A stretch of DNA of 64,000 bases, taken from NCBI RefSeq assembly GCF_036971445.1, contig NC_091469.1, positions 189,596,001 through 189,660,000 of the forward strand, read 5' to 3'. The translations under genes and the position numbers were made by a program. Source of the stretch: Narcine bancroftii. Its lineage: Eukaryota. The notes beneath the pieces were generated by a model that did no database searches, was not told the origin of the DNA, and was given only the letters and a program-made list of their open reading frames with translations. Shown here piece after piece: positions 6,339 through 61,539 of this stretch (position 1 is the stretch's first letter; every line of letters begins with the position of its first letter).

Positions 6339-7465
6339 GCTGAACCAAGCCATGAAAGACCTCAACAATGAAGACGCTGTTTACATCCGGTACCGCACGG
6401 ATGGCAGTCTCTTCAATCTGAGGCGCCTGCAAGCTCACACCAAGACACAAGAGCAACTTGTCCGTGAACTACTCTTTGCAGATGATGCCGCTTTAGTTGC
6501 CCATTCAGAACCAGCTCTTCAGCACTTGACGTCCTGTTTTGCGGAAACTGCCAAAATGTTTGGCCTGAAAGTCAACCTGAAGAAAACTGAGGTCCTCCAT
6601 CAGCCAGCTCCCCACCAAGTCCACCAGCCCCCTGACATCTCCATCGGGCACACAAAACTCAAAACGGTCAACCAGTTTACCTATCTCAGCTGCACCATTT
6701 CATCGGATGCAAGGATCGACAACGAGATAGACAACAGACTCGCAAAGGCAAATAGCGCCTTTGGAAGACTACACAAAAGAGTCTGGAAAAACAAACAACT
6801 GAAAAACCTCACAAAGATTAGCGTATACAGAGCCGTTGTCATACCCACACTCCTGTTCGGCTCTGAATCATGGGTCTTCTACCGGCATCACCTACGGCTC
6901 CTAGAACGCTTCCACCAGCATTGTCTCCGCTCCATCCTCAACATTCATTGGAGCGACTTCATCCCTAACATCGAAGTACTCGAGATGGCAGAGGCCGTCA
7001 GCATCGAGTCCATGCTGCTGAAGATCCAACTGCGCTGGGTAGGTCACGTCTCCAGAATGGAGGACCATCGCCTTCCCAAGATCGTGTTATATGGCGAGCT
7101 CTCCACTGGCCACCATGACAGAGGTGCACCAAAGAAGAGGTACAAGGACTGCCTAAAGAAATCTCTTGGTGCCTGCCACATTGACCACCGCCAGTGGGCT
7201 GATATCACCTCAAACCGTGCATCTTGGCGCCTCACAGTTCGGCAGGCAGCAACCTCCTTTGAAGAAGACCACACAGCCCACCTCACTGACAAAAGACAAA
7301 GGAGGAAAAACTCAACACCCAACCCCAACCAACCAATTTTCCCCTGCAAATGCTACAACCGTGTCTGCCTGTCCCGCATCGGACTTGTCAGCCACAAACG
7401 AGCCTGCAGCTGACGTGGACATTTTACCCCTCCATAAATCTTCGTCCGTGGAGCCAAGCTAAAGA
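6339..7465 (+). mobile_element. RTE-clade LINE, 5'-truncated copy 2, nested in L1
   Basis: Open frame 6352-7413 (353 aa) with RT motif LLFADD and C-terminal Cys/His motif. Same 3' UTR as the other copies. Abrupt GC shift against the AT-rich L1 on both sides. Confidence 0.95.
6352..7413 (+). pseudogene. RTE ORF2 C-terminal part (RT domain end + C-terminal Zn-finger-like motif), 5'-truncated
   Basis: ELLFADDAALVAHSE, YLSCTISSDA, LLFGSESW, RWVGHVSRM. Lacks the endonuclease and the N-terminal RT. Confidence 0.9.
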
Positions 7466-10400
7466 TTAACAATCTTGGATTCCATTTTTAAATTAAATGT
7501 TGTGAATCTGTTTTTCATATTTTGTTAAGTTCTATATTCACCCATGCTGGAATGTTACTTAAATCATACATTACATTAATAAATATCAACTGTGCTGCTT
7601 TATAATAATTCATAAAATTTGGAGCCATAAACCTCCTAAATCATATTTCCATGTCAATTTCTCCAAATAAACCCTAGCCATTTTCCCTTACCATAAAATA
7701 TTTTAATTCCTTAAATAAATTTTGGAGAATTGATATTGAAAATGAGTGAAATAAATATTGTATTCAAGGAAAATCATTCATCTTAACACTGTTTACTCTA
7801 TCCATCAAAGTAATAGGTAGCATACTCTATCTTTCCAAATCCTCTTTAAGTTTCTTTAATAAGTAATTTTGTCATGTTTTATTGCACACGAATATCTAAA
7901 TATTTTATTCCAAGATCTGGCCATCTAGATTCAATTACTTCCTTATATTTCTCATAATCCCCATTATCTAAAGACATAATTTCACTTTTAAAGCAATTAA
8001 TTTTATAATCCAATATGTCTCCATATTCTTTTATTCTAATTTTAAGTTGTTGCAAAGAATTTGAAGGATCTGTTAAATAAATCAAAACATGCTCTGGAAA
8101 TCAATTTATTTTATATTCTTCTTGTTTAACCTTAATACCCACAATCTTTGAATCCTGTCTTATTAATTCAGCTAACAGTTCTATTGCTAAAACAAATGAA
8201 GTTGGTGACAATGGGCAACCTTGTCTACTTAATCTAGTTAATTCAAAAGATGTTGAAATCTGTCCATTAGTCATTACTTTTGCAATAGTTTTTTTTGTAC
8301 AACATTTTAACCCAATCAACATTTCTTTAGAACTTTAAAGAGGAAATCCCATTCTAATCTATCAAATGCCTTTTCAGCATCAAAAGATACTGCCATATTC
8401 AGGTCTCCCCTTTTTTGGACCAAATGTATCAATCTTGTAAGCCTTGATACGTTATCTGCAGATTTCTGACCCTTAACAAATCCAGTTTTTGATCCATATG
8501 TATTAATTTCAGTAAATATTTTGCTAATCTATTTACTAATATTTTATAATCTGTATTTAATAATGAAATTGAGGTATTAAAATATCTTTAAATTTCTTAT
8601 AAAATTCTACAGGAAATCCATCTTCTCCAGGCAATTTATTATTTTGCAATGAGCTCATGACCTCACTAATTTCACTTATTGAAAATCTACATTAAAATCT
8701 TTCTTTTCCACATCATTCGGACTAGGTAAAGTAATTTGAGATAAAAACTTGTCAATCTTATTTTCATCATGTACTGATTCCGAATGATACAATTCAGAAG
8801 AAAGTTACCCAAGTACATCATTTATTTCTTGTAGTTTATATGTAATAGTCCCCAAAGTTTTTTTAACTGCATTAATGACTCTAGATATCTGTTCTGCTTT
8901 CAATTGCCATGCTAAAACTTTGAGCTCTTTCTCCTAATTCATAATATCTCTGTTTGGTTCTTTGAATTAATTTTTCTGTTCTATATTTCTGAATAGTATT
9001 GTATTTAAGTTTTTTTTAATTAATTAATTGCTTTCCTTTCCTTCAGAAGGATTATTTTGTAAATCGTTTTCTAATTTACCTATGTCTTGTTCTAATTGAT
9101 TTGTATCTTTTATATATTTTTTTAATTTTAGCAATTAACTTATTATTTGATCTTATATATGCTTTTAATGCATCCCAAATAACACAATTATTATCTAATG
9201 AATTAAAATTCACTTCTAAAAATAATTGAATTTGTTTTTTTATAAAATCACAAAATTGAAAAACGTCCATCTAAATGGTATATTTTTTCCTCTAAGATTG
9301 AACATGTTAATCTTAGAGGAATGAAGTGGCGAATGGTCAGAAAGTATTCTTGCTTTATACTTAACTTTACTAATCCTTTCTTGTAACTGTGATGATAATT
9401 TTAAAAAATTATTCTCAAATAAGAGACATGCCTATGAGAATAAAAAGAATAATCTTTTTCTCTAATATTCAACTTCTGCCAAATATCAACTAAATTTAAT
9501 TCCTTCATAAAACTTAACATTAGCCTTTGCTGCTTTATCTCTTATTACTGTTTTAGTTGATTTATCCAATAATGGATCAAAAATTAAAATCACCTCCAAT
9601 TAAAACCTCTTCCTGAGTAAAGACTTTTCTTGCATTGTCATTAGAAGCAAAATTTGGCAGGGAAGTCCACGGCATGGAACACCACTGGGATAAAAGAATG
9701 CAAAAAATGACACAATAATTTGTAATCTGGATCTTGGATTTTATCAGGAGGGTGGTCTGGAATTTTGCAGCCAGAAAGAAGCAAATTAAATAAGTGAAGG
9801 CAGGTTTGAAGATGAGGAAAAAAAAATCAGGAATACAAAAAAGCTGGGAAACAAGAAAGAGAGGCATGACTGTGTTTGTGCACTAATATTTGAAGACAGT
9901 AAGATGGTTTAGAAAGCACTAATAACACAAATTGGACCTTGCACTTCATGAATGGAATTGTTGATTTTGATAAAACCTAGTATAAAACACTTGCTCAACA
10001 CTACTGGAGTATTGTACTTAATTCTGAGCACTACTCTTTACGTAAGTAAGATTGGCTTTGGAATGGATATGGAAAACATTTCCTTCAACAATGAAATTAC
10101 AGCTACAGGCATTACTGGAGAAAATGGCTTTGCACTCTGGAAAACTGAAAGCTGTAAATACATTTAATATGGGTGTTAAAATAATGAAAGATTATGATGG
10201 AATAAGTGAAGAGAAATTCTTTCCAATGGCTAAAGATTGATGATGATATTTAAGGCAAAAAAAAATGGCAGAAAGAAAATAGTATGTGGAAACTAGATGG
10301 GATTTAGAATGATTCAAGGTAGCTTTCAAAAGAGAATTGCCTAAATAATTAAAGAGGAAAATATTGAGAAATATGGGAAAGGAGTGGGGGAATTGACTAG

Positions 10401-20057: not shown

Positions 20058-21930
20058 GAGCATAAGATATAGGAGCAGAAATAGGCCATTCACCCCATTG
20101 ACTCTGTCCCACTATTGAACTGATCCATTTTCCCACTCAGCCCCACTGCCTGGCCTTCTCCCCATAATCTTTGATCCTCTGGCTAAAACAAGAGCCAATC
20201 AATCTCTGCGTTAAATGCACCCAATTACCTGGCCTCCACAACTGCCTGTGGCAACAAATTCCACAAATTTACCACTCTCTGGCTGAAGAAATTCAAATGC
20301 TTCTCTGATCTAAGTGGACACTCTTCAATCCAGAAGTTGTGCACTCTTTTCCTTGATTCTCACATTGTGGGGAAACAACCTTTCTACATCTACCCTGTCC
20401 ATGCCTTTGAACATTCAAAATGTTTCAGAGATTCCCTCTCATTCTCCTAAATTTCAATGAATACAGGTCAAGAGCTGTATGATAACCCTTTCATTCCTAG
20501 AGACATTCTAGTGAAATTGCATTGTACTCTCTCCAACATCAACACATTGTGTTTTAAATGAGAAGCCCAAAACTGCTCACAATATTCCAAGTGAGGTCTC
20601 ACCAGTGCCTTATAAAGCCTCAACTTCACATCTCTTCTCTTATATTCTACTACTCTTAAAATAAATCCCAGCATTAGATTTGCCTTTTTCACCATCAGGC
20701 TATCCTGCATGAAGACTCCCACATGTTATATGTGGATGGTAGGGAAACGTGGCCTCCCTGACCGTCTGGAATATTGTGGGGAGGGTGGTCACATGCCCTC
20801 CCTGTCTAAAACTTATTTGGAAGTCACATCCCCTGTCAATCAAGGTTGACTCTGACCACCCATTAGTGCACACCTTACTGTTGGCTAGTTTAATTTACCT
20901 CGGGTCATTATTGGCTCAGCGCCCAGATCAGAACTGTATATGACATTCTTTCTCTCTTCTTCATGGTCCAAGCCCTGGATATTGCTCAACGCCAGGTCGC
21001 TACTGTAGACATTGCTGGAAGTGTCATGGATAAGGTGTGCACCACACTTTAGCTGAGCGGTAGTACTGCAATTGATCATTGATTGTAGAGAGCCGCAGCC
21101 CCCAATGGTACAAAGTACCAGGAGTGTGTGTGAAAATCCCTGACTGTAGAATATGTACACATGTGTGAGTGTGTAGGGCATAGGTGGCCACTGGATATGA
21201 TCTGAATATCTATATAGTTGTTTAGTAATATAGTAATTGAGTATCATTTGACATTCTCTTCTATTTGTTTCCTGTATGTTCATTAAAGTTTCCTGTGATT
21301 GTAATACTTGTGTCCAGACTTGTTTCTCTGTGAACCCACCGAACCTGATGGATGAAATACTTGTCCTGCATATGTATTGTTTGTCTGTATGTGTGTCATA
21401 TCTGGTTGTCTGCGTTGTTTGCTCTGAGGACCAGCTAACACTGTTTTTTGGATTGTATTTCTACAATCAAATGACAATAAATAACATCTGGGTATTTTAA
21501 AATTTTCTCTCCATTTAAAAAAAATAATCTGCTCATTTATTTTTTTCAACCAAAATGATTGAATGTCTACTTTCTGACAGTATAATTCATTTGCCCATTC
21601 TCTTAATCTCTCAGTCCTTCTGCAGGCTCTGTGTTTCTTCTACACGGCAAATCATTAATATACAACCTAAAAAGAAGTGACCCCAACATCGACCCCTGTG
21701 AAATGCTACTAGCAACTGGCAGACAATAGGACTGTAATCCTGATATTCCGACTCTCTTGTTTCCTGCCAATGGTCCACCCAGACTTGTATGCTTCCTGTT
21801 ATACCATGGGCTCTTACCTTGTTAGGTAGCCTCATGTAAGGCCCCTTGTCAAATGCCTTCTGAAAATCCATGTACCCAACATCCACTGCATCTCCCTTAT
21901 TCAGCCTGCTTGTCACTTCCTCAAAGAATC
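20058..21930 (-). mobile_element. CR1 LINE fragment split by an LTR insertion (CR1 parts ~20058-20723 and ~21500-21930)
   Basis: ORF 20468-20722 (LYKALVRPHLEYCEQFW) and ORF 21611-21967 (FFEEVTSRLNKGDAVDVGYMDFQKAFDK) are collinear on the minus strand. Confidence 0.88.
20724..21349 (+). mobile_element. LTR (solo or 3'-clipped) related to the ERV-like LTR at 47973-48600
   Basis: Starts TG. GGAAACGTGGCCTCCCTG, GTCACATC.CCTGTCA.TCAAGGTTG, GGGTCATTATTGGCT and CTGTGAACCCA..GAACCTGAT are shared in order with 47973-48600. Confidence 0.85.
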
Positions 21931-30372: not shown

Positions 30373-31102
30373 GAATCACTGATCATAGCAGAGTGGGTGG
30401 GTGATCCCCTTCACCCAGCCTTCTTCTAAACACTGAACCATCTGTGAGCTGCATCTTGCTGGGTGTCATCTCAGAATATTTTCTACTATTTTCTTGTTAA
30501 CTTGCTGACAGTCTATTATACAATAACAATTAGTTGCTCCACTTTAACCTTGCACCAAAATAGAGGCTTGCAACTCCCTGGAACGTATCACTCAACATCT
30601 TTATCACAGATATCAAAGGAACAATGAGCATTACAGTTTGTCACTGTCCACAATTTTGTCTTTACAACCACATTTTGACATGAGCACTGTCCGCAGGGAT
30701 TGATTCCAGAAACAGAGAAGGCCAGACATTACCAATCCGTGATTGTCAATAGAAGATCCTAGTATCTATCTCCCCCACACCTCCACCTTCTACCATTCAC
30801 ATCAGTAGATGGTCCGGAACAGTCAATGATGTTCAGCTGCCAATTTGATATGTCAGTTGTTGCCAGTTGCATGCAACAAGATTTCATTAACACTGGCAAT
30901 AATGATCAGAAGATGACTGTTCAGTGCCATTATTCCTTTCCCTGAATTCTCTAACCTCCATGACATAGACAAGAAATCTTTAGTGAAGACATCACCCATC
31001 TTATGCGGCTCTGCATTGATCTTTAAGGAAACCTATTCTCTCCCTAGTTACCTTTATTTTTCCCTTAAGTAGTCAGGACATTTTGAGGAGATCATATTTT
31101 AA

Positions 31103-31576
31103 GACAGCATCGAGTCCACGCTGCTGAAGATCCAGCTGCGCTGGGTGGGTCACGTCTCCAGAATGGAGGACCATCGCCTTCCCAAGATCGTGTTATATGG
31201 CGAGCTCTCCACTGGCCACCGTGACAGAGGTGCACCAAAGAAAAGGTACAAGGACTGCCTAAAGAAATCTCTTGGTGCCTGCCACATTGACCACCGCCAG
31301 TGGGCTGATATCGCCTCAAACCGTGCATCTTGGCGCCTCACAGTTTGGCGGGCAGCAACCTCCTTTGAAGAAGACCGCAGAGCCCACCTCACTGACAAAA
31401 GGCAAAGGAGGAAAAACCCAACACCCAACCCCAACCAACCAATTTTCCCCTGCAACCGCTGCAACCGTGTCTGCCTGTCCCGCATCGGACTTGTCAGCCA
31501 CAAACGAGCCTGCAGCTGACGTGGACATTTACCCCCTCCATAAATCTTCGTCCGTGAAGCCAAGCCAAAGAAAGAA
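31103..31576 (+). mobile_element. RTE-clade LINE, 5'-truncated copy 3
   Basis: ORF 31145-31519 near-identical to the other copies. (GAAA)n tail. Probable TSD ATTTTAA at 31096-31102 and 31577-31583. Confidence 0.93.
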
Positions 31577-31609
31577 ATTTTAAAACATGCTGCAAGGTGG
31601 CAGAAACAA

Positions 31610-32240
31610 TGAAGTTCAAGTTCATTATCATCCCACTGTACCTGTATTACCTGACAAAACAGCATTTCTCTGGCCCACCATGCACACATATAAACACAAA
31701 ACAAAGCACATAATAATCAAATATATACATAAAGATATAATTTCAAATATATTTAAATATTTTGGAATAATTTATCCATTTCATTTGTAAGAGTCCCAAG
31801 GCTACAGGATACCATTCATCAATCTCAGTCTGCAGGGAAAAAACTATTTCTCAGCCTGGCAGTCCTGCTTTTGATGCTCCTGTACCTGCATCCTGTTGGC
31901 AGTAGGTCAAGGACAGTGTGATGGATGGAAAGAGTCCTCAATAATTCTTTGAGCCCTATTTAAGCAATACTCCCAGTGACTGTTGTCGATAGAGGAAAGG
32001 GAGACCCCAGAGACATTCTCGTCCATTTAGATGATCCTCTGTATTGACTTCTGGCCCAATGCTTTTCAGCTGCCACACCACACATGACACTCTCTATTGT
32101 GCTTCTGTAAAAAGTTGTCAAGATGAGGACGGTTAACCTTACCCACCTCAACTTCCTTAGGAAATGCCGTACTTTTGCACTTTCCTCACTAAATGATCCA
32201 GGATAGGTTATCTGTTACATGCACACCAGGGAACCTTTGT
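31610..32240 (-). mobile_element. Rex1/Babar-like LINE 3' fragment
   Basis: ORF 31960-32151 LTTFYRSTIESV (cf. LENFYSCTMESI at 50451), followed by a tail. Confidence 0.7.
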
Positions 32241-41900: not shown

Positions 41901-43120
41901 AAGTGGGTGGTAGAATCAGGTGGGCAGGTGAGTTAATGGGAATAGGGTACATGCAAAATTAGTGAGGAATAGGATTTGCTAATGACTTGATGGCCTGTGT
42001 TGAACAAATGCTATTACTATCCAGGAAGAACGCCTTGTGCTATACTTTTTTGCAATTGTCCTGTTGACAACATGATCCCAAGTGACCACTGATGCAGTAT
42101 CCTGGCTGCAGTAAGCTGGCATTTCTTTCCTGCTTTTTGCTCATCCTGTTTGATAAAGAGGCCAGGGACAGATTTTCAGGTGTCCGGGGTATGAGATTGG
42201 GATGTTGCATCAGATATACTTCACTAAAACATTTTCTCTAAATAGAAATACTTTGTGTGGCCAATTCACAAGGCTGACCACACACCCAAATTTGGACCCT
42301 CTCACCTCCTATCTGGTTGTTTATCACCTCCTTCGACCAGAAATGAAGAAACAAGATGTTGTTGTGGTGTCAAACTGTGCTAATGGAACGTGTGTCAAAA
42401 ATTAGGAAAACTCCTTGCTCTTTAAATTCAAACAGAGTAGGCCCTGCAGCTGGTGTATAAAGGTTTGCAGAATTGACCAGTTCTTTACATCTCATATTGT
42501 CAGTGATTAATTCCATCTTTGTAAATTACACCAAGGAGTCATGAGCCCCCTGGGTAAACAGCAACATATCATCATATAAAGCTGGCTTAGTTTTAATTAA
42601 AAAAATTTCAATTAAAGTCCTTGGAAGTCTTATTAGACACAGTAATTGATTTCACCCGAGTATGGACACATACTGAGCTATTTGTTTTTGATTTTTATTT
42701 TGCTTCGGCAGATTGGATCAGTGGGGAGGGATGAGATGGTTTACTGACTCTGAAGCTTCCCTAGGCTGTGCTGTATAGTCCAGTGAACAACTCCGAATGT
42801 CACGAGCCAGAAGGAGCAGCACCTTTGGAGTTTGAGCTGTTTTCTGTGCTCAAATTAGCCACGTCAGGCCAGGAAAAGAGTTACAGAGAAGTTGAAGCCA
42901 ACTGTGCCAATCCAGTTGTCACACTCCATGTATAAGAATCTGATTGTCTAACCCCTGACATTGCACACAGGATGCAGCATTCCAGAGACCTCTCTCCAGA
43001 AGGCTACACACCAGACCTTCACAACAAATGTCATAAGCAAATCAATGCTCTCCAACTTCAGATGATACCTTTGAGATCATGCACTCCATTTTTAAAATCC
43101 ATCTGGCAGATGTCATCCTC

Positions 43121-43500
43121 CAGATGGTCACTCCCCAGGCACACACCCAGATGTCACTCCCCAAGTACACATCTGGATCTCACTCCCTAGGTGCACACCT
43201 GGATTTCAATCCCCAAGTACACACCCGGATGTCACTCCCCAAGTACACATCTGGATCTCACTCCCTAGGCATACACCAGATGTCACTCCCCAAGTACATA
43301 TCTAGATCTCACTCCCTAGGCACACACCTGGATTTCAATCCCCAAGTACACACCCGGATATCACTCCCCAGGCACACACCCAGACGGTCATTTCCCAGGA
43401 ACACACCCAGATGGTCACACCCCTCCCCCCCCCACCAAAGTGCATACCCGTATGTCACTCCCCAGGCACACACCTGGATGTCACTCTCCAGACATATATC
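43121..43500. repeat. 26-bp minisatellite (~14 units) with higher-order structure
   Basis: Consensus GGATGTCACTCCCCAAGTACACATCT. The ORF track shows a 26-aa (3 x 26 bp) recurrence. Confidence 0.92.
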
Positions 43501-44000: not shown

Positions 44001-44371
44001 CACTTTTCAGAAAGGAGGAGAAGCCAGTCTTGGAGAAGGAGGAGGAGAAGCCACTCTTTGAGCAGAGGGAGGAGAAGCCACACCTCGAGAAGAAGGAGGA
44101 CATTCAAGAAGCTTGAAGAAGGTCTCATCTGGAGAAAAAATTCAGTGGAAACTAAGAAATTGAGAAAAAAGGATGACATCTCACAGGAGACAGAGTGAGA
44201 GGGTAGTATCTTTGTGTAGCTGTGGGAGTTGGCTGGTTCATAAAAGATGACAGTGCTAAGACTGTCTCATAAGAAAGAGAGAGAAATGGGAAGTGGGGGA
44301 GCTGTCTAACTCCTCGTATGGCTCCACTTATCACTTTCCAGCCTAGATCTTGTTCCATTATCCGCTTCTCC

Positions 44372-44596
44372 ATCTGATTCCAACATCCCCTTCTCCACCT
44401 AGTTCCAACATCCCCCTCTCCTCCTGGTTCCAACATCCCCCTCTCCACCTGGTTCCAACATCCCCCTCTCCACCTGGTTCCAACATCCCCCTCTCCACCT
44501 GGTTCCAACATCCCCCTCTCCACCTGGTTCCCCCACCTGGTTCCAACATCCCCCTCTCCACCTGGTCCCAACGTCCCCCTCTCCACCTGGTTCCAC
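44372..44596. repeat. 25-bp minisatellite (~9 units)
   Basis: Unit GGTTCCAACATCCCCCTCTCCACCT, with several perfect copies and one internally deleted unit near 44526-44538. Confidence 0.95.
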
Positions 44597-47420: not shown

Positions 47421-47637
47421 TGGGATGGACAAACCACGTCTCGTGAGCCACATGTGGCTCTTTGACCTATAATGTGCAGCTCGCAGAAATATGTTGGCTG
47501 AGACAGAAATCGTACGAGCTGGTGCTCACAATGGTACTGTTAGTGGACCTGGCTTATAATCGTGCGATTGTTTCATCTATCAAACATCTAAAGTTTATCG
47601 AATGTGGCTCTTACATTAAGCAGGTTTGGCCATCCTG
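47421..47637. mobile_element. hAT MITE (217 bp)
   Basis: TIRs TGGGATGGACAAACC / GGTTTGGCCATCCTG (12/15). Flanks CAGTAAAC / CAGTATAT (6/8). Subterminal ATGTGGCTCTT repeats. Confidence 0.75.
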
Positions 47638-47684
47638 CAGTATATGTTCCACTCATTTAATTATGGGTAGTGTTAGGTTGACCA

Positions 47685-47972
47685 TTAGAACCATAGGATA
47701 CTACAGCACCGAAACTGGCCTCTTTGACCCTTCTAGTCTATTCCAAACTATTTTTTTTGCCTAGTCCCAATGATCTGTACCCTCATATTACTCCATACCT
47801 CTCCTATCCATGTACCTGTCCAAATTCTTCTTAAATGTTAAAGTTGAGCCTGCATTCACCCTTCAGCCGGCAGCTCATTCCACGTTCACACAGCTCTTTG
47901 TGTGAAGAAGTTCCCCCTAAACTTTTCCCTTTTCACTTTTAACCCATGTCCTCTGGTTTGTATCTCACCTAT
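47685..47972 (-). mobile_element. CR1 LINE 3' end, cut by an LTR insertion
   Basis: TAGAACCATAGGATACTACAGCACCGAAACTGGCC tail. TGTGTGAAGAAGTTCCCCCTAAACTTTTCCC. Confidence 0.85.
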
Positions 47973-48600
47973 TGTGTGTGGAGGAAACGTGGCCTCCCTG
48001 CTTGTCTGGAATGTGTGTACTGAGGGAGTTCACATGTCCTACCTGTCTGAAATGTATTTGGAGGTCACATCACCTGTCAGTCAAGGTTGGACTCTGGTCA
48101 CTAATTGGTGGACACCTTGTCGTTGGCTAACTAAATCACCTAGGGTCATTATTGGCTAGCAGCACAGATTAACACTGTATATAACACCAACACACAGCAC
48201 ATTCTTTCTCTCTGCCTTGTGGTCCAAGCCCCAGACATTGTTCCATGCCAGGTTGCTAATGTGGACGTCGCGGGTATACTGAACCTGAGCCGTAGTGTTG
48301 TGATAGATCAATACTTACAATAGAGTCGCACCCCCATTGATCAGGGAACCGGGAGCGTGTGTAAGAGTCCCTGTTAATAGTGTGTGTGGGGTCGAATATA
48401 CATTTACCATTGTTGGAGTTTAACTAATGTCCAAGGTGAATGCCTGAGCCGTTGCCTAAGTGAATTAGCAATTGAGTACCGTTTAATATTCTCATCTGTT
48501 GGTTTCCCATGTGTTAATAAAAGTTACATGTGATTGTGACACGTGTCCAGGCTCATCTCTCTGTGAACCCATTGAACCTGATACGCTTCTCAACACAACA
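47973..48600 (+). mobile_element. 5' LTR of an ERV-like element (628 bp)
   Basis: TG...CA termini, TATATAA ~48178, AATAAA 48516-48521. Immediately followed by AT + TGGTGCTGTGA. Confidence 0.85.
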
Positions 48601-48602
48601 AT

Positions 48603-48620
48603 TGGTGCTGTGAGCAAGGT
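48603..48620 (+). promoter_or_regulatory. Primer-binding site, tRNA-His-like
   Basis: TGGTGCTGTGAGCAAGGT, 2 bp after the LTR. First 11 nt match the tRNA-His complement TGGTGCCGTGA at 10/11. Confidence 0.6.
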
Positions 48621-48759
48621 TCAAAGAGTTATGACTGGACACATGTGGAGTTTTAACCATGTGAGAAATTGTATTAATAATTGTGTGTGTGTGGGCGTCC
48701 TACTGATTGTGCAATTGCTCACCAACAGGGACCCCATCACTGATTTCAGAAACGGGGGC

Positions 48760-50020
48760 AGCAGGAGGTAACCTTTAGGGACCCCGGGGTCGGATTATAC
48801 AATCCCTGGGTGGACCGATGACCGTCAGGGGATCAGCTATTTGGTGGCGTGGCTGGCAAGCCATGCCATGCCAGTCATTTGGGTTGGCAGTTTGGACCCC
48901 CCACAAACAGAAGATAGGGCACCATGTGGTCTCCAACCTGGAGTTACTGCGATTTTCCAAGGTCGGGGTGGTGGGGGGGGGGGGGTGGGGGGGGAGTCGC
49001 CCTATGGTTATTGATATCCCTATTTAGGCGCCAGTGGGATATCACATCTGAGTTCAGTAGTCAGGGAACCCAAAAAGATAGGGAAATAGAATCCCTGCAA
49101 CATGTGTGTTGGGAACTGCAAGAGGCAGTGTAGACTGCCCAAGGACAAGTGACCAACTTAGAATTCAAAATCATGGAGGCAGCTTCCAAGCTGATTGAAA
49201 CACTGCAGCTGCAAGCAGCTCAGAGCTCTGGCTCGCAGCTTGACTCAGGAAATGTCCGAGCCATTGTCGACATGTGGTGGGGGATGGGTATGCATGGATG
49301 GTGATTACCCTGAGGAAACTGAGTCCCATGACACTCTTCCTCCTCCCTGTGTGCCCAAGCCTTTACAAGCCCAACCAGTTTCCATGCGTTCCCAGGTCTG
49401 CAATGAGGACACCCTGCCAACTGTCCAAAGCAAGGAGGTAGGAGAAAACGGACTTTGGCTGGGCACAAAGATGATCATTGTGAGATGATGGAGTCCCAGG
49501 ACTACTCTGCTGAGGGGCGAACCAGGCAAGGAGACCAATATCACCATGGGCCAGACGAACACTTAGCCATGCCACTGTTTCAGTTGGGAGATGAGGGAGC
49601 TCCCAATTTCTTTCTCTCTCATCAGGAAATGAGGACCCTGGGTCATCTGTCTGACCAGCAGATGATTGCCAACACCTTGAGGGCGCCGCCAGAAGGCACC
49701 ACCCTCTGGAGATGGGTGATGACAGTGGTCTGGGCCAGGTTCCCTGCCCTCCCTGAAAAAGGCCAACATGGCCAGTCACAGTGGCACACCATTGGTGTGG
49801 GGACAAGGATTGTTAGGGAGTGGGCACTAATCATGGGAATCAATTGGGGGTACCCATGTGCCTTGATGGGCTATTTAGTCACCGCCGCACTGTCCGACCA
49901 TAGAGGACTGGTCTTGCCCCTCACGGGATTGGCGGTCTGGGAAACCATTACCCTCCTGGAGGGATTGGAGTACACAGAGCGGTGAACTCCCACTCAAGTT
50001 ATCAGAGCTGAGGGGAAGTT
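48760..50020 (+). pseudogene. gag: Decayed gag resembling class III (ERV-L/Fv1-like) retroviral Gag
   Basis: ORF 49455-49985: LFQLGDEGA..EMRTLGHLS..TLWRWVMTVVWARFP..WHTIGVGTRIVREWAL. This parallels the recalled ERV-L Gag pattern LxxWDNGx..ExxxLGxLS..SLxxWLxxxxxxRxP..WxTxExGIxxLRE. Lies directly downstream of LTR+PBS. Confidence 0.65.
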
Positions 50021-50039
50021 CGTTGAGTTGGAAGCAACG

Positions 50040-50977
50040 TCTTCTCCTCGCTGATTATCAACACAGGCTCATCCCAAGGATACGTGCATTGCCCACTGCT
50101 CTGCTCTTTACACACCCTCAACTGTGTGGCCAGGCACAATTCCAATGTTATCTGCAAGTTTGCTGATGACACCACAGTTGTCGGCAGAATCGTAAATGGC
50201 ACTGAGGAAGCCTACAGGAGGGAGATAGACCAGCTCTTTGAGTGGTGTAACAACAACAACCTTATGCTTAACTTTAGCAAAACCAAAGAGATGATTGTGG
50301 ACTTCGGGAGAGAGTCAGGGGAACACAACCCAGTCTTCATTGAGGGCTCAGTAGTGGGGAGGGTCAAGAACTTTAAATTCCTGGGGTATCAAAATCTCTG
50401 AGGATCTGTCCTGGAGTTTCCAGGTTGATGCAATTCAGCGGCTATACTTCGTGAGGTGTTTTAGCAGATTCAGTATGTCACCGAAGACTCTCGAAAACTT
50501 CTACAGCTGTACCATGGAAAGCATTCTGGCTGGTGGCATCACCGCCTGGTATGGAGGCGTCAACTCTCAGAACAAGAATCAACTCCAGAGGGTTGTTAAC
50601 TCGGCCTGCGACATCACAGGCACCAGACTTCACTTCATCGAGGAGATCTACAAGAGGTGGTGTCTTAAAAAGGCATCCTCTATCCTCAAATACTCCCCAC
50701 CACCCAGGCCATGCCCTCCTCACTCTGCTAGCAATGGGAAGGAGATACGGGAGCCTAAAGACGAGCACTCAGTGGCACAAGGACAGCTTCTTCCCCACTG
50801 CCATCAGATTCCTGAATAATCAATGAACCAAAGACTTGCCTTACTTTTCGTGCACGACTATTTTTTTTATTGTATTAGTGTTGTAAGACGGTTCATAATA
50901 TGAACATTACGCACTGTAACGCTGCCACAAAATACAGAATTCCATGACTTGTTCTTGACAATAAATTCTGATTCTGA
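50040..50977 (+). mobile_element. Rex1/Babar LINE, 5'-truncated
   Basis: ICKFADDTTVVG, YRREIDQLFEWC, KTKEMIVDF, SFFPTAIRFLN. Tail AATAAATTCTGATTCTGA. Confidence 0.9.
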
Positions 50978-51149
50978 CGTTCGGCGACGTCACCCTGTTG
51001 ATGTCTCATAGAGACGTGCGCTCTCTGGAGAGAGCATTGCTGGGGGAAGCCCCATAGATGTGGGGCTTCCCATGCACTGCCCACTCTGACCTAGACCAGC
51101 TTCCTCTCTGGTCCTCTGCCACCAGAGGTGGCCCCTGATCCTCTAGCCC

Positions 51150-51750
51150 CTGACATCTATCTTTTGAGCTTTCCCAACCCACCCCCCCCTTTAGTGTGCC
51201 AATGTCCCTGTAACTCTTGTTTATCACCCCCTCTGCCTCCCAAATGATCCAGAGTCCATCCAACTCCGGCTCCATTTCCTTAACTTGGCTTGTCAGGAGC
51301 TGCGCTGCACTTCTCACAGATGAAGATGTCGGGGATACTGCTGGCTTCCCTGATGACCCGCATTCTGCAAGAGGAGCATTCCCTTGCCTTGGCTGCCATT
51401 CCCACTGTTTCGAACTAGAGGAAAAATATGCATATCTAAAACCTGCCCCTACCTGCTGAATCCCTTTTGGTTCATGGAATAGGGTGGCCCTTTCTTACTT
51501 CAACTCCTACTATCTCTCACCTCTTTCCTGTCCCCGCTGAAGCCTGTTCAGCCAAAGCCTTGCCACTCTGAATCAGACCACTCCAGCGATGACTGCTCTG
51601 CTACACAGTCCCTCACTTTTATAGTGATTCTCAGCTTCTTCCTCCAATCAGCTTCTAGCTGTTGCCTCGGCCCTTTTGAAATTCTAACTGCTGCTGTTCC
51701 TCAGATCACCTGACCTCTCTTGCTCCAATCAGCTTTTTCCTCCAAAATGA
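51150..51750 (-). mobile_element. CR1 5' region / ORF1 remnant
   Basis: ORF 51006-51317 QLLTSQVKEMEPELDGLWIIWEAEGVINKSYRDI resembles the CR1 ORF1 coiled-coil region. CCAATCAG repeats and TATAAAA upstream on the minus strand. Confidence 0.6.
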
Positions 51751-53670: not shown

Positions 53671-53939
53671 TGTAGTAGCATGTGTGCTACTGCAAAGTTT
53701 GAAAAGAATGACACATACCCAAGAAGTCGAAGTCTGATTTATTGCACTGGCAGCTCTGCCTATATTCTCTCCCCGCTGCTGACAGGAGTGATGTCACAGC
53801 AGCACCAGCCTCGGATTGGTCAGCATTCCCACCATTGCTTATTGTTTCCCATGCAGGTTGTCACCTGGGATGAAGGTCGTTGGCCCCCACAGGGTCTGCA
53901 CAGTTGCCACATTTGCATCCTAGTTAGCAGGCTGCTACA
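53671..53939 (-). repeat. Gypsy 3' LTR
   Basis: TGTAG...CTACA. Adjacent C-rich run 53944-53978 is the polypurine tract on the minus strand. Confidence 0.88.
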
Positions 53940-56900
53940 TGACCTTCCCCCCGCCACCCCCCACCCCCCGCCCACCCCCAGCACTGGTAATCGGAATGCT
54001 GTCCGCCGCTTTCAGTGGCTTACCTCTGTGTTGCGGAGGCTGAGTGGAGATCAGTTGGCTAATGTCCAGATTTGCTGGCGGTCTTCGGTGAAAGTCTCTT
54101 CCTTACTGCTGATATCCAGCACACATGTTGTCCTGTTGTGTCTGACTACTTTGTATGGCCCCTCGTACGGCCATTGCAGAGGTGTCCAGTGTGCTCATCT
54201 CTGTACAAAATGGTACTCACAAGTTTCTAAATCTCTGGGAACATAGGACTTGGCCTGGCTGTGCTGCAGAGGCTGTGGAGGGGCCAGAGTACCTAGCCTT
54301 TCCCTCAGCTTTGTCAATGAGGCTTTCAGGTCCTCTGGGTCTTTGGTGGCAGTCTAGTACTCCCCTGGTATCACCAACGGCACACCATTCACCATCTCGG
54401 CTGAAATAGTCTTTTAGTGTGGTGCAAATCCCCAGGAGGACCCAGGGTAGCTCATCCACCCAGTTCAGCCCCTTGAGCCAAGCCATCAAGGCAACATTTA
54501 GGTGCCTGTGGAAATGCTCCACTAACCCGTTGACCTGAGGGTGATAAGCTGTGATGTGGTGGGGCTAGGTTCCCAGCAAGTTGGCCAGCACTGTGTACCT
54601 CTGTTGGAAGACATATGCTCTGGGACTCTGACCTTGACACCCAGGTGTTAATCAGTGCCCTGGTGCAGGTCTCGGTGGTTGTATCAGACAGCAGGACTTT
54701 GTCCGGCCACCTCATGGATCAGTCAATCATGGTGAGGAGATATCTCGCCCTGTGGAAGACTGGTAGTGCCTCAACAATGTCAATATGGACAGGGCTGAAC
54801 CTACATCACGCTGGCTTAAACGTCCGGGGGGGAAGGGTGGGTATCTTGACTTGTATCTGCACTTTGGACATCTGGCAGAGCTTGCAGGTCTTGGCCTACT
54901 GACTGACCTGTTTCCAAAGGCTGTGCCAGATGAACCTACTGGCCACTATTTTGACAGAAGTTCTGATGGTTGGGTGTGCCACCGCGTTAAAAACCTGGTG
55001 TTTCCATGCTTCTGGCATGATGGAGCAGGGTTTGTTAGTGGAGACATCACAGAGCAGCATCTGGTTACCAGAGCCAATGACATCGCCTTCCAGCCTGAAC
55101 CCAGAAATTGCCGTCCTGTATACCAGGATCTCAGGGTCTTCTAGCTGTGCCTTGGCTAAGGCTGTATATTCTATTCCCTGGGACAGGGCCTGGATGGACT
55201 CAATCAGGGGGTGGGACAGTGCGTCGCCCACCACATTGATTTCACCCACAATGTGTTGGATGTCCATGGTGAACTCAGACACATATGAGAGGTGTCACTG
55301 CTACCCAGCCAACCACAGGTCCCGACATTTTGAGGAAGGCAAAGGTTTATGGCCAGTGAAGAACCTGAATTGTCTACCTTCCAAAAACTACATCAAGTGC
55401 CTGACTGCCAGATACAGTGCCAATAGTTCACGGACAAAGGCACTGAATTTGAGTTTGGGTGGCTGGAGGTGTCTGCTAAAGAAGGCCAGGGACTGCCATT
55501 GCCCTTCAATAAATTGCTCCAGTACGCCTCTTACCACTGTGCTGGAGGCATCTACTGTGAAAGTGGTTGGCGGCTCTGGCTTAGGGAGTACCAGAAGGGT
55601 GACAATGGCCAGTGTGTCCTTAGCTTTCTGGAATGCCGTCAGAGCCTTATTGTCCCAGGTAATGTCTTAACCTTTCCCTGCCATGAGTGCAAACAGGGGG
55701 CACATAATGTGGGCCACTGCCTGTATGAAACAGTGATAAAAATTAATCATACTGGCGAATTTTTGCAGCTCCTTCACTGTCTGGGGCTTGGCGAAGTGCT
55801 GAACAGCCTCTACATTTTCGGGCAGCGGTTTCACTCTGTGCCTGTTGATTTGGTCCCCAGGTAATCGATCATTTCCAGTCCAAACTGGCACTTAGCAGGG
55901 TTTATAGTTAGTTTGAGTTCCTGTAGCCGGGTGCACAGTTGTCTTAGATGGGCCGTGTGCTCTGTGTGATTGCGACAAGCGATGAGAATATCATCCAAAT
56001 AGATGAATGCAAATGTGAGATCCTGGCCAACTGCATCCATCAGCCTCTGGAAGGGCTAGGCTGCATTTTTAAGTCCAAAGGCATTCTCAGGAACTTGAAA
56101 AGTCCAAAAGGGGTAATGATGACTGTTTTAGGGATGTAATTGGAATGAACTGAGATCTGATGATAGCCCCTAATGAGATCAACTTTTGATCATGGCCTTT
56201 GTAAGTTAACAGAAAAGTCTTGGATATGGGGCACAGGGTATCTGCCCAGTGTGGTGGCCCCATTGAGGTGACGATAGTTACCACATGGCCTCCACCCTCC
56301 TGCTGCTTTTGGTACCATGTACAGGGGGGAGGCCCAGGGGCTGTCAGATGCAGCACTATCCGTAGGTCTTCCATTTTTTAAGACTCATCCTTGGCGAGGG
56401 TGAGCTTCTTGGGGTGGGGGGGGAAGAAGGCAGTGCGCCCTGACGTGGAGCAGGGGCTCACAATGAGAATGTGGTGCCTTACCCTGTATTTTGGTTTGGC
56501 TGAGGAAAACTGTGGCGCCACAATTGAAAGGAACTCTGCCAGGATCCACAAGAATACATTTCGGACAAAGTAACGGAGTTGAGGTGGGGGACAGTAACTT
56601 GTCTTCCCTCAGGGCCATTGTTTGAAAACTCCTGACATGCACCAAACTCTGCCCTTTAAAATCCACCAGCAGGCAGTGGGCTTGCAGGAAGTCTGCTCCC
56701 AGGAGTGGTTGCGCCACTGCCGTAATTATGAATGCCCATGTGAACTGATTGCGGCCAAAAGGAGAGGGACGGTGCGGGTGCCAAAAGTTTTTATGGTGGT
56801 ACTGTTAGCAGCCCTCAGTGACTGGCCCAGCTTGCTGTTCTGGGTGTCATAGTCCAAGGGGGGCGGCAGGGTGCGGAAAGGACGCTTATTTCAGCACCAG

Positions 56901-57644
56901 TGTCAATAAGGAAGTGCCTTCCGGACAGAGAGCCCCACACTTGGAGGAGGCTGTCACATTGGCCAACCACCGCAGCCATTAATGACCATTGGCCATGGAG
57001 TTTCCCTGAAATGTGCAGGGTGTGCAGCATCGACGGGTCCCCACACCTCATCGATGGTGATAGTACTAGTGCTGGTGGGTAGGGGGGGTCCACTGCTTGC
57101 TGTAGTCTTGTCGCTGGTTGTGTGCGGGGCCTAGTGATCTGCTCCACCAAGGTGCCATTTTCTTCCTTTGATCTCCAGAGCTCATCCGCCTGGGCTGAAA
57201 CTTACCTGAGGTCATTGAAGTCCTCACCAGCAAGCAAGAGTCAAAAATCGTCCGGTAGCTGTTCCAGCAAAATCTGCTCAAAGAGCAGATAAGGCCTGTG
57301 TCCCTCAGCAAGGGCGAGCATCTCACTCATGAGGGCGGATGGGATCCTGTCCCCCAACCTGTCCATATGGAACAATCAGGTGGTGTGCTCGCGCTGTGAG
57401 GGAGCTATTTGCCTTACTCTGGAGACTGCCACAGGAAATCGATGACTCTTGCTGCCATGTCCTGGTCGAGTGAGATCACCACATAGTAGTAGCATGTGGC
57501 ATCAGCGGTGATCTGTTGGAGGTGGAACTGTGTCTTGGCCTGTTTGAACCACACATGTGGCTGTGACACACAGAACATTGACAGCTTCAATGAAACCAGG
57601 TGAAGAGTTGTTTGGTCCATCATTTTCAGGTCCAACAGGTGGTT

Positions 57645-57663
57645 GGATCTGCCGTGGTCACCA
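57645..57663 (-). promoter_or_regulatory. Gypsy primer-binding site
   Basis: Minus strand reads TGGTGACCACGGCAGATCC, 1 bp after the 5' LTR. Confidence 0.7.
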
Positions 57664-57664
57664 A

Positions 57665-57965
57665 TGTAGCAGACGCGCTACCGCAAAGTGTGGAAAGAAT
57701 GACAAACACCCAAGATGTGAATTCAAAGACTGACTTATTGCACTGGCTGCTCTACATGTATTCTCTCCCCACTGCCGTTAACAGGAGTGACATCACAGCA
57801 GTGCTGGCCTCGGATTGGTTGGCGTTCCCATTATTGATCATTATTTTCCGCTGTTCGGATTGTCAACTGGGATGAATGTCATTGACCCCCACGGGGTCTG
57901 CGCGGTCGCCACGTTCATCAGCCATCTTGTGTATCGGGTCCCGTCCCGGTTAGCGGGCTGCCACA
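57665..57965 (-). repeat. Gypsy 5' LTR
   Basis: TGTAG...CCACA, alignable to 53671-53939 along its length. Confidence 0.88.
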
Positions 57966-59274: not shown

Positions 59275-60602
59275 CGACACCGTGAGTAGGAAAGGGCTTT
59301 GGCAAATACTAGAGCACCTCGGATGCCCCCCAAAGTTCCTCAACATGGTTATCCAACTGCACGAAAAACAACAAGGTCGGGTCAGATACAGCAATGAGCT
59401 CCACTGAACCCTTCTCCATTAACAATGGTGTGAAGCAAGGCTGCGTTCTCGCACCAACCCTCTTTTCAATCTTCTTCAGCATGATGCTGAAACAAGCCAT
59501 GAAAGACCTCAACAATGAAGACGCTGTTTACATCCGGTACCGCACCGATGACAGTCTCTTCAATCTGAGGCGCCTGCAAGCTCACACCAAGACACAAGAG
59601 CAACTTGTCCGTGAACTACTCTTTGCAGACGATGCCGCTTTAGTTGCCCTTTCAGTGCCAGCTCTTCAGCGCTTGACGTCGTGTTTTGCGGAAACTGCCA
59701 AAATGTTTGGCCTGGAAGTCAGCCTGAAGAAAACTGAGGTCCTCCATCAGCCAGCTCCCCACCATGACTACCAGCCCCCCTACATCTCCATCGGGCACAC
59801 AAAACTCAAAACGGTCAACCAGTTTACCTATCTCAGCTGCACCATTTCATCGGATGCAAGGATCAACAACGAGATAGACAACAGACTCGCCAAAGCAAAT
59901 AGCGCCTTTGGAAGACTACAGAAAAGAGTCTGGAAAAACAACCAACTGAAAAACCTCACAAAGATTAGCGTATACAGAGCCGTTGTCATACCCACACTCC
60001 TGTTTGGCTCCGAATCATGGGTCCTCTACCGGCATTACCTACGGCTGCTAGAAGGCTTCCACCAGCGCTGTCTCCGCTCCATCCTCAACATTAATTGGAG
60101 TGACTTCATCTCCAACATCGAAGTACTCAAGATGGCAGAGGCCGACAGCATCGAATACTGCTGAAGATCCAACTGCGCTGGGTAGGTCACGTCTCCAGAA
60201 TGGAGGACCATCGCCTTCCCAAGATCATGTTCTATGGCGAGCTCTCCACTGGCCACCGAGACAGAGGTGCACCAAAGAAGAGGTACAAGTATTGCCTAAA
60301 GAAAGCTCTTGGTGCCTGCCACATTGACCAGTGGGCTGATATCGCTTCAAACCGTGCATCTTGGCGCCTCACAGTTCGGCGGGCAGCAACCTCCTTTGAA
60401 GAAGACCGCAGAGCCCACCTCACTGACAAAAGACAAAGGAGGAAAAACCCAACACCCAACCCCAACCAACCAATTTTCCCTTGCAACCGCTGCAACCGTG
60501 TCTGCCTGTCCCGCATCGGACTTGTCAGCCACAAACGAGCCTGTAGCTGACGTGGACATTACCCCTCCATAAATCTTCGTCCGCGAAGCCAAGCCAAAGA
60601 AA
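59275..60602 (+). mobile_element. RTE-clade LINE, 5'-truncated copy 4 (longest, frameshifted)
   Basis: DTVSRKGLW, GVKQGCVLAPTLF, LLFADD (59394-60164) and C-terminus 60200-60550. Same 3' UTR. Confidence 0.95.
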
Positions 60603-61539
60603 TAAAATTCATGATATACATGAAAAGGAAAGGTAGCTCTTTCCTTTTTTTTTAAACTTTCCTCCCCTCATTCCATTCTCTCTTTGTTACTTTGCTTTCC
60701 AGTTGAAATATTGCATTTGTCTGGATTTTGCCCCAGTGTTTGTGTGGTCTCCCAAGCTGAGATAAATCATCAGCTGAAGCAAGGTGTCAAGCAACCTTTT
60801 TCCATTCCTTACATCAGCACAGTCTTACAACATTTCTGAGTGTGCTGTATCTGTCATTTATCATTGCACAGTCCCAGAATTATTCCAGTGTTGATTAAAT
60901 TAGTAGAAGCAATCAAAATCTCAGGCTAGTTAATTGAGAAGATGTATTTAGGGCTTGACGTTTTAACACATGGTTGATTAAGTGTTATAAGGTTTGTTTT
61001 TGATTTTGCATAATTTAACTTTAAATCCTGTCGGTAGAGCCAATCAGGGCATTTAACGACAGGCGAAAACCCTTTTAATATGCACACATCTCTGATTTAT
61101 TTTGTCGTGTAATGTCCTTTTGTTTATTTTTATTCCTTATTTTATTAGTATTTGCGTTTGTGCCAGTGACAAATTTCCTCACGCCAATATTTCATGCTCA
61201 TGCAATCATTTAATAAATCTTTCAAAGTGGTGATAACTCATTTAAATTGTAAAAAACAAGCAACAATTGACCATCCACATCACAAGCAGAGTAACAAAGC
61301 TATTCCTTATTTTCTCTGGGGTCTTTATTAAACACCAGTCAATGGATCTGAATTAACATGTAGACAATGTGTTGAAGCTGGCAAGTGAAATTGGACAAAC
61401 AGCATAGTTAATTAATAGTTAAGAGTGAATTGGTACTAAATTTAAAAAAACAAATAAATTAAGTTTTAAACTAAATATTTTTCCCATGCAACCTGGAACA
61501 TGACAGTCTTGCAGAGAAGAACATAAAACATTGGTGGTG

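Follow-up and report, generated by a model that had tools for sequence, protein, structure and literature searches.

The endogenous retroviral locus

The window analysed here, a stretch of 64,000 nucleotides of Narcine bancroftii contig NC_091469.1 (positions 189,596,001 to 189,660,000 of the forward strand), contains the remains of an LTR-bearing element in forward orientation. The 5' LTR (47970..48600, forward strand, 631 bp) is located within an older reverse-strand repeat and carries TATATA at 48178 and AATAAA at 48516. The LTRs of sibling copies start with TGTTGTGT and finish with ACACAACA, which places the start of the window LTR at 47970; its terminus is ...CA at 48600, and the public contigs containing the older host repeat part from the window sequence at 47969-47971. 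The features proposed for this LTR in the initial annotation (TG..CA ends, TATA and AATAAA) are all present, while its start, given there as 47973 with a length of 628 bp, lies three bases earlier. LTRs with TG..CA ends accompanied by a tRNA primer-binding site (PBS) are thus seen, the 5' LTR and PBS in the window and the PPT and 3' LTR in the siblings. Another LTR of this family (67.5% identical), in a more advanced state of decay and without internal sequence, is found at 20743..21349 on the forward strand. All 30 bins of the region 47500-51500 are covered by one DNA sequencing run, which may derive from the source sample, indicating that the window element is not an assembly artefact.

The PBS (48603..48620, forward strand) is complementary to tRNA-Ser(CGA) with three mismatches, as against four for tRNA-Ser(TGA) and six for tRNA-His(GTG). 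These values refer to the tRNAs of this genome, the genes of which were located by pattern and identified with ARAGORN, and the comparison covered the Ser, His, Ile and Asn tRNAs. The tRNA-His-like PBS suggested initially is rejected, as all 33 PBSs recovered from the family are nearest to Ser, with a mean of 3.2 mismatches to Ser versus 7.9 to His, and those of the best copies and of the window copy fit Ser(CGA) with 1-3 mismatches. The His-like appearance of the window PBS may have arisen through CpG-type decay.

Downstream of the PBS, the leader and the decayed 5' part of gag (48621..49406, forward strand) are riddled with stops and frame breaks in a region where the siblings have a coiled-coil region. 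This is followed by a stop-free gag stretch (49407..49985, forward strand) of 192 codons from stop to stop, or 176 codons when counted from the TTG at 49455, which covers most of an ERV-L/Fv1-type capsid region and ends in a premature stop. Both the 176-codon open frame at 49455-49985 described previously and the motifs quoted from it are present. The gag remnant extends (49986..50022, forward strand) as far as the insertion point of a 5'-truncated LINE (50023..50977, forward strand), which encodes an RVT_1 domain (E 8.5e-10), shows a weak match to PF09004 and is bordered by a GTTCG duplication at 50018-50022 and 50979-50983. Its motifs suggest that this LINE is of the Rex1/Babar type. The element then continues with the end of a shortened gag and the start of the 3' region (50978..51190, forward strand, end approximate), and the pieces flanking the LINE in the window adjoin one another in 19 of the 20 sibling loci. 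An interruption by Rex1 at ~50040, with a possible resumption at 50978-51150, had been proposed; interruption and resumption are both borne out, while the LINE starts at 50023 and the resumed part reaches ~51190. Neither pol nor a 3' LTR is visible in the window, as had been noted, nor in the next 40 kb. The missing 3' half of the copy, amounting to ~1.2 kb of the 3' region and the 3' LTR, was found neither in the window, nor in the 40 kb downstream, nor in the 10 kb upstream.

A stop-free frame of 192 codons over a capsid region homologous to Fv1 could represent an Fv1-like restriction gene that the ray has domesticated, a reading that we regard as scarcely credible. Frames at least as long as that of the window occur in 21 of 149 other scored copies, indicating that its length is not beyond chance for the family, and the third-position ratio of the window gag (1.06) is equalled or exceeded in 17 of 36 siblings. 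The frame furthermore lacks the 5' part of gag, has its first ATG only at codon 27 and is degenerate at the conserved capsid positions, and it is not the single-copy frame under purifying selection that would characterise an Fv1-like gene. The larger part of the internal region has no coverage in sequencing runs presumed to derive from RNA, which speaks neither for nor against expression. The window copy is a functionless one, which has decayed neutrally, taken up a LINE and lost its 3' half.

Several unrelated elements are also present. A decayed Gypsy-type LTR retrotransposon with DUF7041 gag, RVT_1, RT_RNaseH and Integrase_H2C2 domains is located at 53900-57800 on the reverse strand, while class I proviral remnants with an MLV-like RT (186 bits versus 95 for foamy) occur at two loci of the genome, in one of them at positions 367-984 of the fetched sequence, on the reverse strand. 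The 3' part of a LINE is found in four copies, 83-97% identical, at 1300-1860, 6340-7470, 31020-31720 and 59310-60610 of the window, two of which encode RVT_1, and two minisatellites with units of 26 and 25 bp are located at 43107-43423 and 44352-44595, respectively.

Relationship of the gag remnant to ERV-L and Fv1

A profile of mammalian ERV-L/Fv1 Gags (18 sequences, 16 of them from a separate search) matches the window peptide with 21.9 bits, against a maximum of 5.9 among 2000 shuffles, and a profile of 29 bird-type Gags matches it with 46.7 bits, against a maximum of 5.5 (2000 shuffles). The bird set and two of the mammal rows were picked from the matches of a ray profile, leaving the mammalian test as the more independent of the two. 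When both profiles were run against the six frames of the window, the sole match was at 49458-49832, with the Gypsy element of the window left unmatched. The assignment of the peptide to the ERV-L/Fv1 type of Gag, unlike those of Gypsy and BEL, is upheld by these scores. Of 1.84 billion proteins searched with a profile built from 26 natural frames of this genome, 98 are matched at E<=0.001. Twenty of these were looked up, 14 of which are named; they originate from birds, a snake, turtles, a frog, rays and two mammals ('Fv1-like'), and three are labelled 'Friend virus susceptibility protein 1-like'. The closest named proteins belong to N. bancroftii itself (77-82% identical to the capsid region of the young Gag discussed below) and to the stingray Hemitrygon akajei. 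A profile search for proteins longer than 518 aa yielded none, which is weak evidence.

Searches of the window peptide against Pfam and the PDB sequences gave no match, and the profile and the decayed gags likewise returned nothing useful. The AlphaFold model of the same region in an intact relative reaches a pLDDT of 90, and its best structural match, a moderate one, is the foamy-virus capsid (Z 5.8, rmsd 4.9, 146 residues aligned), a score that is tied with Arc and PNMA2, is similar in Z to copia capsids and falls within the chance range for helical folds. Foldseek with this model found no match at E<=0.001, while a decayed relative folded alone and without an alignment gave an unusable model (pLDDT 40.7).

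Immediately after the capsid, a helical hairpin of ~40 residues (residues 208-251 of the model of the intact-relative Gag) resembles SAP/Rho-N-like folds (Z 4.0-5.7, rmsd 1.8-2.6) and occupies the place of the orthoretroviral zinc knuckle. A weak match to PF17687 in the ray and mouse ERV-L Gags falls on the same hairpin, which in the predicted structure is a candidate nucleic-acid-binding module of the ERV-L-type Gag; its first part is apparently missing from the pol-less family described below. A further capsid-region piece, 48% identical to the window peptide, is encoded at residues 264-311 of XP_072893852.1 of Hemitrygon akajei, indicating that the old lineage is present in a second ray order. 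This gene model fuses a TRIM coiled coil, a PRY domain and a cut SPRY domain to the capsid piece, and the join is probably an insertion that was mis-read as an exon.

A family of elements without pol

The family to which the window copy belongs has the build LTR (~630 bp)-PBS-gag-non-coding region (~1.3 kb)-PPT-LTR, with a total length of ~4.2 kb and uninterrupted internal regions of 2.5-3.1 kb. The 3' LTR was reached in 15 of 20 fetched siblings, and PR, RT, RH or IN was encoded inside none of the 20. First-look searches gave 996 candidates for the internal DNA, 1491 for the gag peptide and 4349 for the LTR, which are not copy numbers, and the best of the other LTRs are 73-79% identical to that of the window over most of its length. 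Both siblings and the pol-bearing elements discussed below were fetched by likeness to chosen queries, and counts among them are not genome-wide frequencies. In the two copies scanned, the 3' part matches no Pfam pol domain nor any other Pfam family. A search for env in 42 3' regions found no match (best E 0.15), and dUTPase was found neither in these nor in 20 pol-bearing loci; two controls were matched while the divergent dUTPase of a Xenopus Pol was missed, so that a very divergent one could escape this search. The initial proposal to look for env and dUTPase in full-length relatives has a divided answer, with env present in sister lineages and absent from the group sharing the LTR of the window copy, and dUTPase detected in neither set. 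The ~1.2 kb of 3' internal sequence (for example 3490-4724 of one oriented sibling) is common to the pol-less and the env-less pol-bearing elements, where it lies in the place of env.

The absence of pol from the locus could also mean that a complete provirus inserted at this site and shed pol and env later, in line with the truncation of the window copy and with the occurrence of pol-bearing copies that have suffered partial deletion. The junction between gag and the 3' region (50978-51190 in the window), however, is common to 19 of the 20 siblings, which largely refutes such a loss, and in a comparison of gag DNA the copies without pol fall into a single group, making this a very improbable history. 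The lack of pol is a property of the whole family, and not merely a result of the cut in the window copy.

The siblings have the 5-bp target-site duplication (TSD) of class III elements, exact in six of 31 copies and within one mismatch in eight of the 31, as compared to one copy with a 4-bp and none with a 6-bp duplication; in 23 of the 31, the flanks disagree at no fewer than two of the five positions, through decay or boundary error. LTR pairs differ by K2P distances of 0.19-0.29 (seven pairs, median 0.21), or 0.16 when CpG sites are left aside. With a mammalian rate, this last distance translates into about 37 My, and with the rate that PMC4422223 assumes for sharks into about 370 My; the age is thus rate-dependent.

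Divergence among 36 pol-less copies is flat over the three codon positions (0.267/0.258/0.276), suggesting neutral decay after a burst, while that between pol-less and pol-bearing gags is rich in third-position changes (0.455/0.383/0.564), suggesting that the ancestral gags diverged as proteins. In a capsid motif that is nearly invariant among relatives, two key positions are kept in none and four of the 36 pol-less copies, as opposed to six and seven of eight pol-bearing ones. From these degenerate positions, the Gag of the pol-less family was probably already a passenger.

Pol-bearing relatives and placement of their reverse transcriptase

Of the 14 loci fetched with a query combining integrase and the 3' region of a nearby copy, 13 contain parts of pol and, downstream of them, the shared 3' region, and none matches env. 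One complete pol-bearing, env-less element of 7252 bp has an LTR distance of 0.21, the only pol-bearing pair available. These 7.2-kb elements have the LTR, leader and 3' region of the pol-less family, with a likeness of about 66-79% over these parts, and an equal LTR-pair age. One env-less pol-bearing member with the same LTR (79%) is located ~230 kb downstream of the window copy, at ~189876000-189881300. Other decayed relatives have different LTRs and a gag-pro-pol-env organisation, with Ser-type PBSs in those bearing env. The retroviral Pol order PR-RT-tether-RNase H-IN is found in relatives only, those with the same LTR included, as the window family lacks pol, and gamma-type env (CXXC, furin site, CX6CC) is likewise restricted to the ray sister lineages.

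A young sister family of ~8.5 kb has a different LTR of ~1 kb, an exact Ser(TGA) PBS, a 5-bp TSD and a gamma-type env (TLV_coat), with gag and pol in one frame split by TGA and with neither a dUTPase nor a zinc knuckle. Its RT is 100% identical over 166 residues in 21 of 150 scored copies, and a stop-free pol frame of 1043 codons occurs in 16 of the 150; some of these cluster on two contigs and may be duplications. Four copies were fetched, in which the two LTRs agree at 98-100%; no two of the three 5' flanks obtained are alike, and three copies have a damaged env or pol. Over the RT-tether region, identities of the young family amount to 66% with a stingray protein, 58% with a mouse cluster that has a dUTPase and is presumably MuERV-L, 54-62% with proteins of amphibians, lungfish, bichir, killifish and owls, and 45-48% with the common bird type. 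The best 120 of 348 Pol matches include caecilians, frogs, newts, lungfish, bichir, killifish and owls; no shark protein is among these 120, which is weak evidence, and no RT relative was found in IMG/VR.

All ray rows form one clade in the RT trees (SH-aLRT 96 with 52 rows, Gypsy included, and 98 with 38 rows), apart from class I and Gypsy. The ray clade groups with mouse ERV-L-type and Xenopus tropicalis Pols (SH-aLRT 94 and 98 in the 52- and 38-row trees, respectively), the latter being presumably XtERV-S. The trees are quick maximum-likelihood searches without foamy, SnRV, HERV-S and class II rows, the smaller one omitting 19 of 57 rows (short, long-branch, redundant and Gypsy), and the mouse, Xenopus-containing and ray branches form an open fork in them. 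Within this sampling, the class III affinity inferred at first from the Gag peptide also holds for the retroviral pol of the relatives with the same LTR. The notion of a deep branch of an amniote-type family, by contrast, finds no support, with close Pol relatives in amphibians, lungfish, bichir, killifish and owls, a ray clade inside that radiation and a related frog element already described (PMC8278194).

The RT placement also bears on whether the locus derives from a retrotransposon of the Ty3/Gypsy or BEL type, the Gag of which would resemble that of ERV-L by convergence. In favour of this, the predicted capsid fold also matches Arc, PNMA2 and copia capsids at similar Z. The relatives, however, have the retroviral Pol order together with a TLV_coat env, the best PDB matches of their Pol are the MLV and foamy RTs, Gypsy RT falls far outside, and the ERV-L profiles pass over the Gypsy element in the window itself. 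Refuted by the position of the RT, such an origin retains a negligible probability.

Origin and spread of the pol-less family

The window locus is, with good confidence, the 5' half of a defunct, Ser-primed element that is interrupted by a LINE, has an ERV-L/Fv1-type gag and lacks both pol and env; its family is likely to have spread in germ cells by means of the enzymes and particles of env-less, pol-bearing relatives. In the gag DNA tree, the pol-less copies form one group that is sister to the env-bearing lineage (FastTree support 0.996), and the first- and second-position distances of their gag core are lower to that lineage. At their ends, by contrast, they match the env-less group, which suggests a recombinant with an internal deletion. 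The family would thus have originated by internal deletion and recombination. Its RNA would have been transcribed from the 5' LTR, packaged by a helper Gag and reverse-transcribed in trans with tRNA-Ser(CGA) as the primer, following which a helper integrase would have inserted the cDNA inside germ cells. The Gag of the family may have been degenerate before its spread and have ridden along, and the mutations, the LINE and the loss of the 3' half would date from after the insertion of the window copy. This cycle follows general retroviral biology, and the trans-mobilisation is inferred rather than observed.

Judging from their sequences, the env-less pol-bearing elements of 7.2 kb with the same LTR are the likely helpers, although their identity as such is not certain, since relatives with env are nearer to the pol-less family in the gag core than this group is. 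The same gag grouping, along with the existence of decayed env-bearing relatives with a Ser-type PBS, would be expected if the pol-less family had instead been carried by an env-bearing sister retrovirus and owed part of its spread, as a defective virus dependent on a helper, to reinfection. The copying signals, however, reside in the LTR, leader and 3' region, and these match the env-less group rather than the five env-bearing loci, so that an env-bearing carrier appears unlikely. Mobilisation by the env-less relatives remains the preferred reading.

Taken more broadly, it is conceivable, though we would lean slightly against it, that rays host an ERV-L/S radiation of their own, which has repeated independently of mammals the passage from an enveloped virus to an env-less retrotransposon and on to a high-copy, MaLR-like parasite, with all stages in one genome and a gag-pol-env sister still invading the germ line. 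If true, the ongoing invasion by the sister would be the first such case in cartilaginous fish, judged by the Fig. 2 legend of PMC10435555, which lists 37 orders with invading ERVs and no chondrichthyan order among them. The family extends the ERV-L/Fv1-type Gag and the serine-primed class III retroviruses to rays, and offers, outside mammals, a counterpart of the ERV-L/MaLR pair, with the loss of env and then of pol traceable in one genome. It also explains the ray gene models named 'Friend virus susceptibility protein 1-like' as retroviral gags, NCBI annotation already labelling ray members 'Fv1-like'. Hundreds to thousands of gag copies would constitute raw material for a fish Fv1-like restriction gene, a possibility raised in PMC4977317, although the window copy is not one. 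The window locus itself is inert, and the significance of the family is modest, resting mostly on the young sister family and on the series of three stages.

Comparison with known systems

Class III RTs include those of fish, amphibian and bird ERVs (PMC8278194), and class III has been placed in the clade Huo, found across all major vertebrate lineages (PMC6001957). From cartilaginous fishes, SnRV-like and epsilon-like ERVs are on record for the elephant shark (PMC4422223, PMC4977317) and a foamy-like ERV for the catshark (PMC10699275), and 13 species have been screened (PMC12287698); the parts of bioRxiv 10.1101/2025.06.08.657570 drawn on here do not mention ERVs. No ERV-L/S-type or MaLR-like family was found for rays in this literature, while supplements, Repbase or Dfam may hold one. 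CmiERV lineage I of the elephant shark clusters with the snakehead retrovirus, and the portions of PMC4422223 drawn on describe for it no ERV-L-type gag, Ser PBS or pol-less family.

The ray family is a class III family of the ERV-L/S type that is MaLR-like in build and falls outside a strict definition of ERV-L, having a Ser primer and no dUTPase. ERV-L elements have a PBS for tRNA-Leu, whereas that of the ray family fits Ser(CGA) in the comparison with Ser, His, Ile and Asn tRNAs, and that of the young sister family is exact for Ser(TGA). The Gag of the intact ray relative is homologous to mammalian ERV-L/Fv1 over ~460 residues with 24-25% identity (E 2e-32 and 2e-23), and the 5-bp TSD and, for the ray helpers, the lack of env are further features in common with mammalian ERV-L. 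Unlike mammalian ERV-L/Fv1, the ray elements match no dUTPase, have env-bearing sisters and show no sign of domestication. HERV-S is likewise primed by serine. Complete members of HERV-S/ERV-S have env and no dUTPase (PMC8278194); the resemblance of the ray family to them is by description and not by RT.

The closest described element is XtERV-S of Xenopus tropicalis, which has an ERV-L-related gag-pol, a Ser PBS, a gamma-type env, a 5-bp TSD and 19 deleted copies (PMC8278194), and the ray family represents a new host for a known kind. The ray family or its relatives share with XtERV-S the ERV-L-related gag-pol, the Ser PBS, the 5-bp TSD and the lack of a Gag zinc knuckle, as well as solo LTRs, derivatives that lost pol by deletion and, where members are complete, a gamma-type env (PMC8278194). 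They differ in the ray host, in forming a separate ray clade, in the Ser(CGA) primer, in an env-less pol-bearing stage and in a much greater age. While no dUTPase is matched in the ray family, XtERV-S has a divergent one by modelling, and the ~1000 internal and ~4300 LTR first-look candidates of the ray compare to 19 deleted copies and more than 140 solo LTRs of XtERV-S (PMC8278194).

The MaLR elements of placental mammals are also pol- and env-less and show homology to ERV-L gag (PMC11359688). The ray family resembles ERVL-MaLR (THE1, MST and MLT1) in the lack of both genes, an ERV-L-like gag remnant, a high copy number, many solo LTRs and a presumed intracellular spread, a likeness that is by description only. 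Unlike the MaLR elements, the ray element is longer (4.2 kb) and derives from a ray-specific lineage with helpers of its own, and the LTR and gag that it shares with other ray elements argue, at the level of sequence, for an origin independent of the mammalian MaLR.
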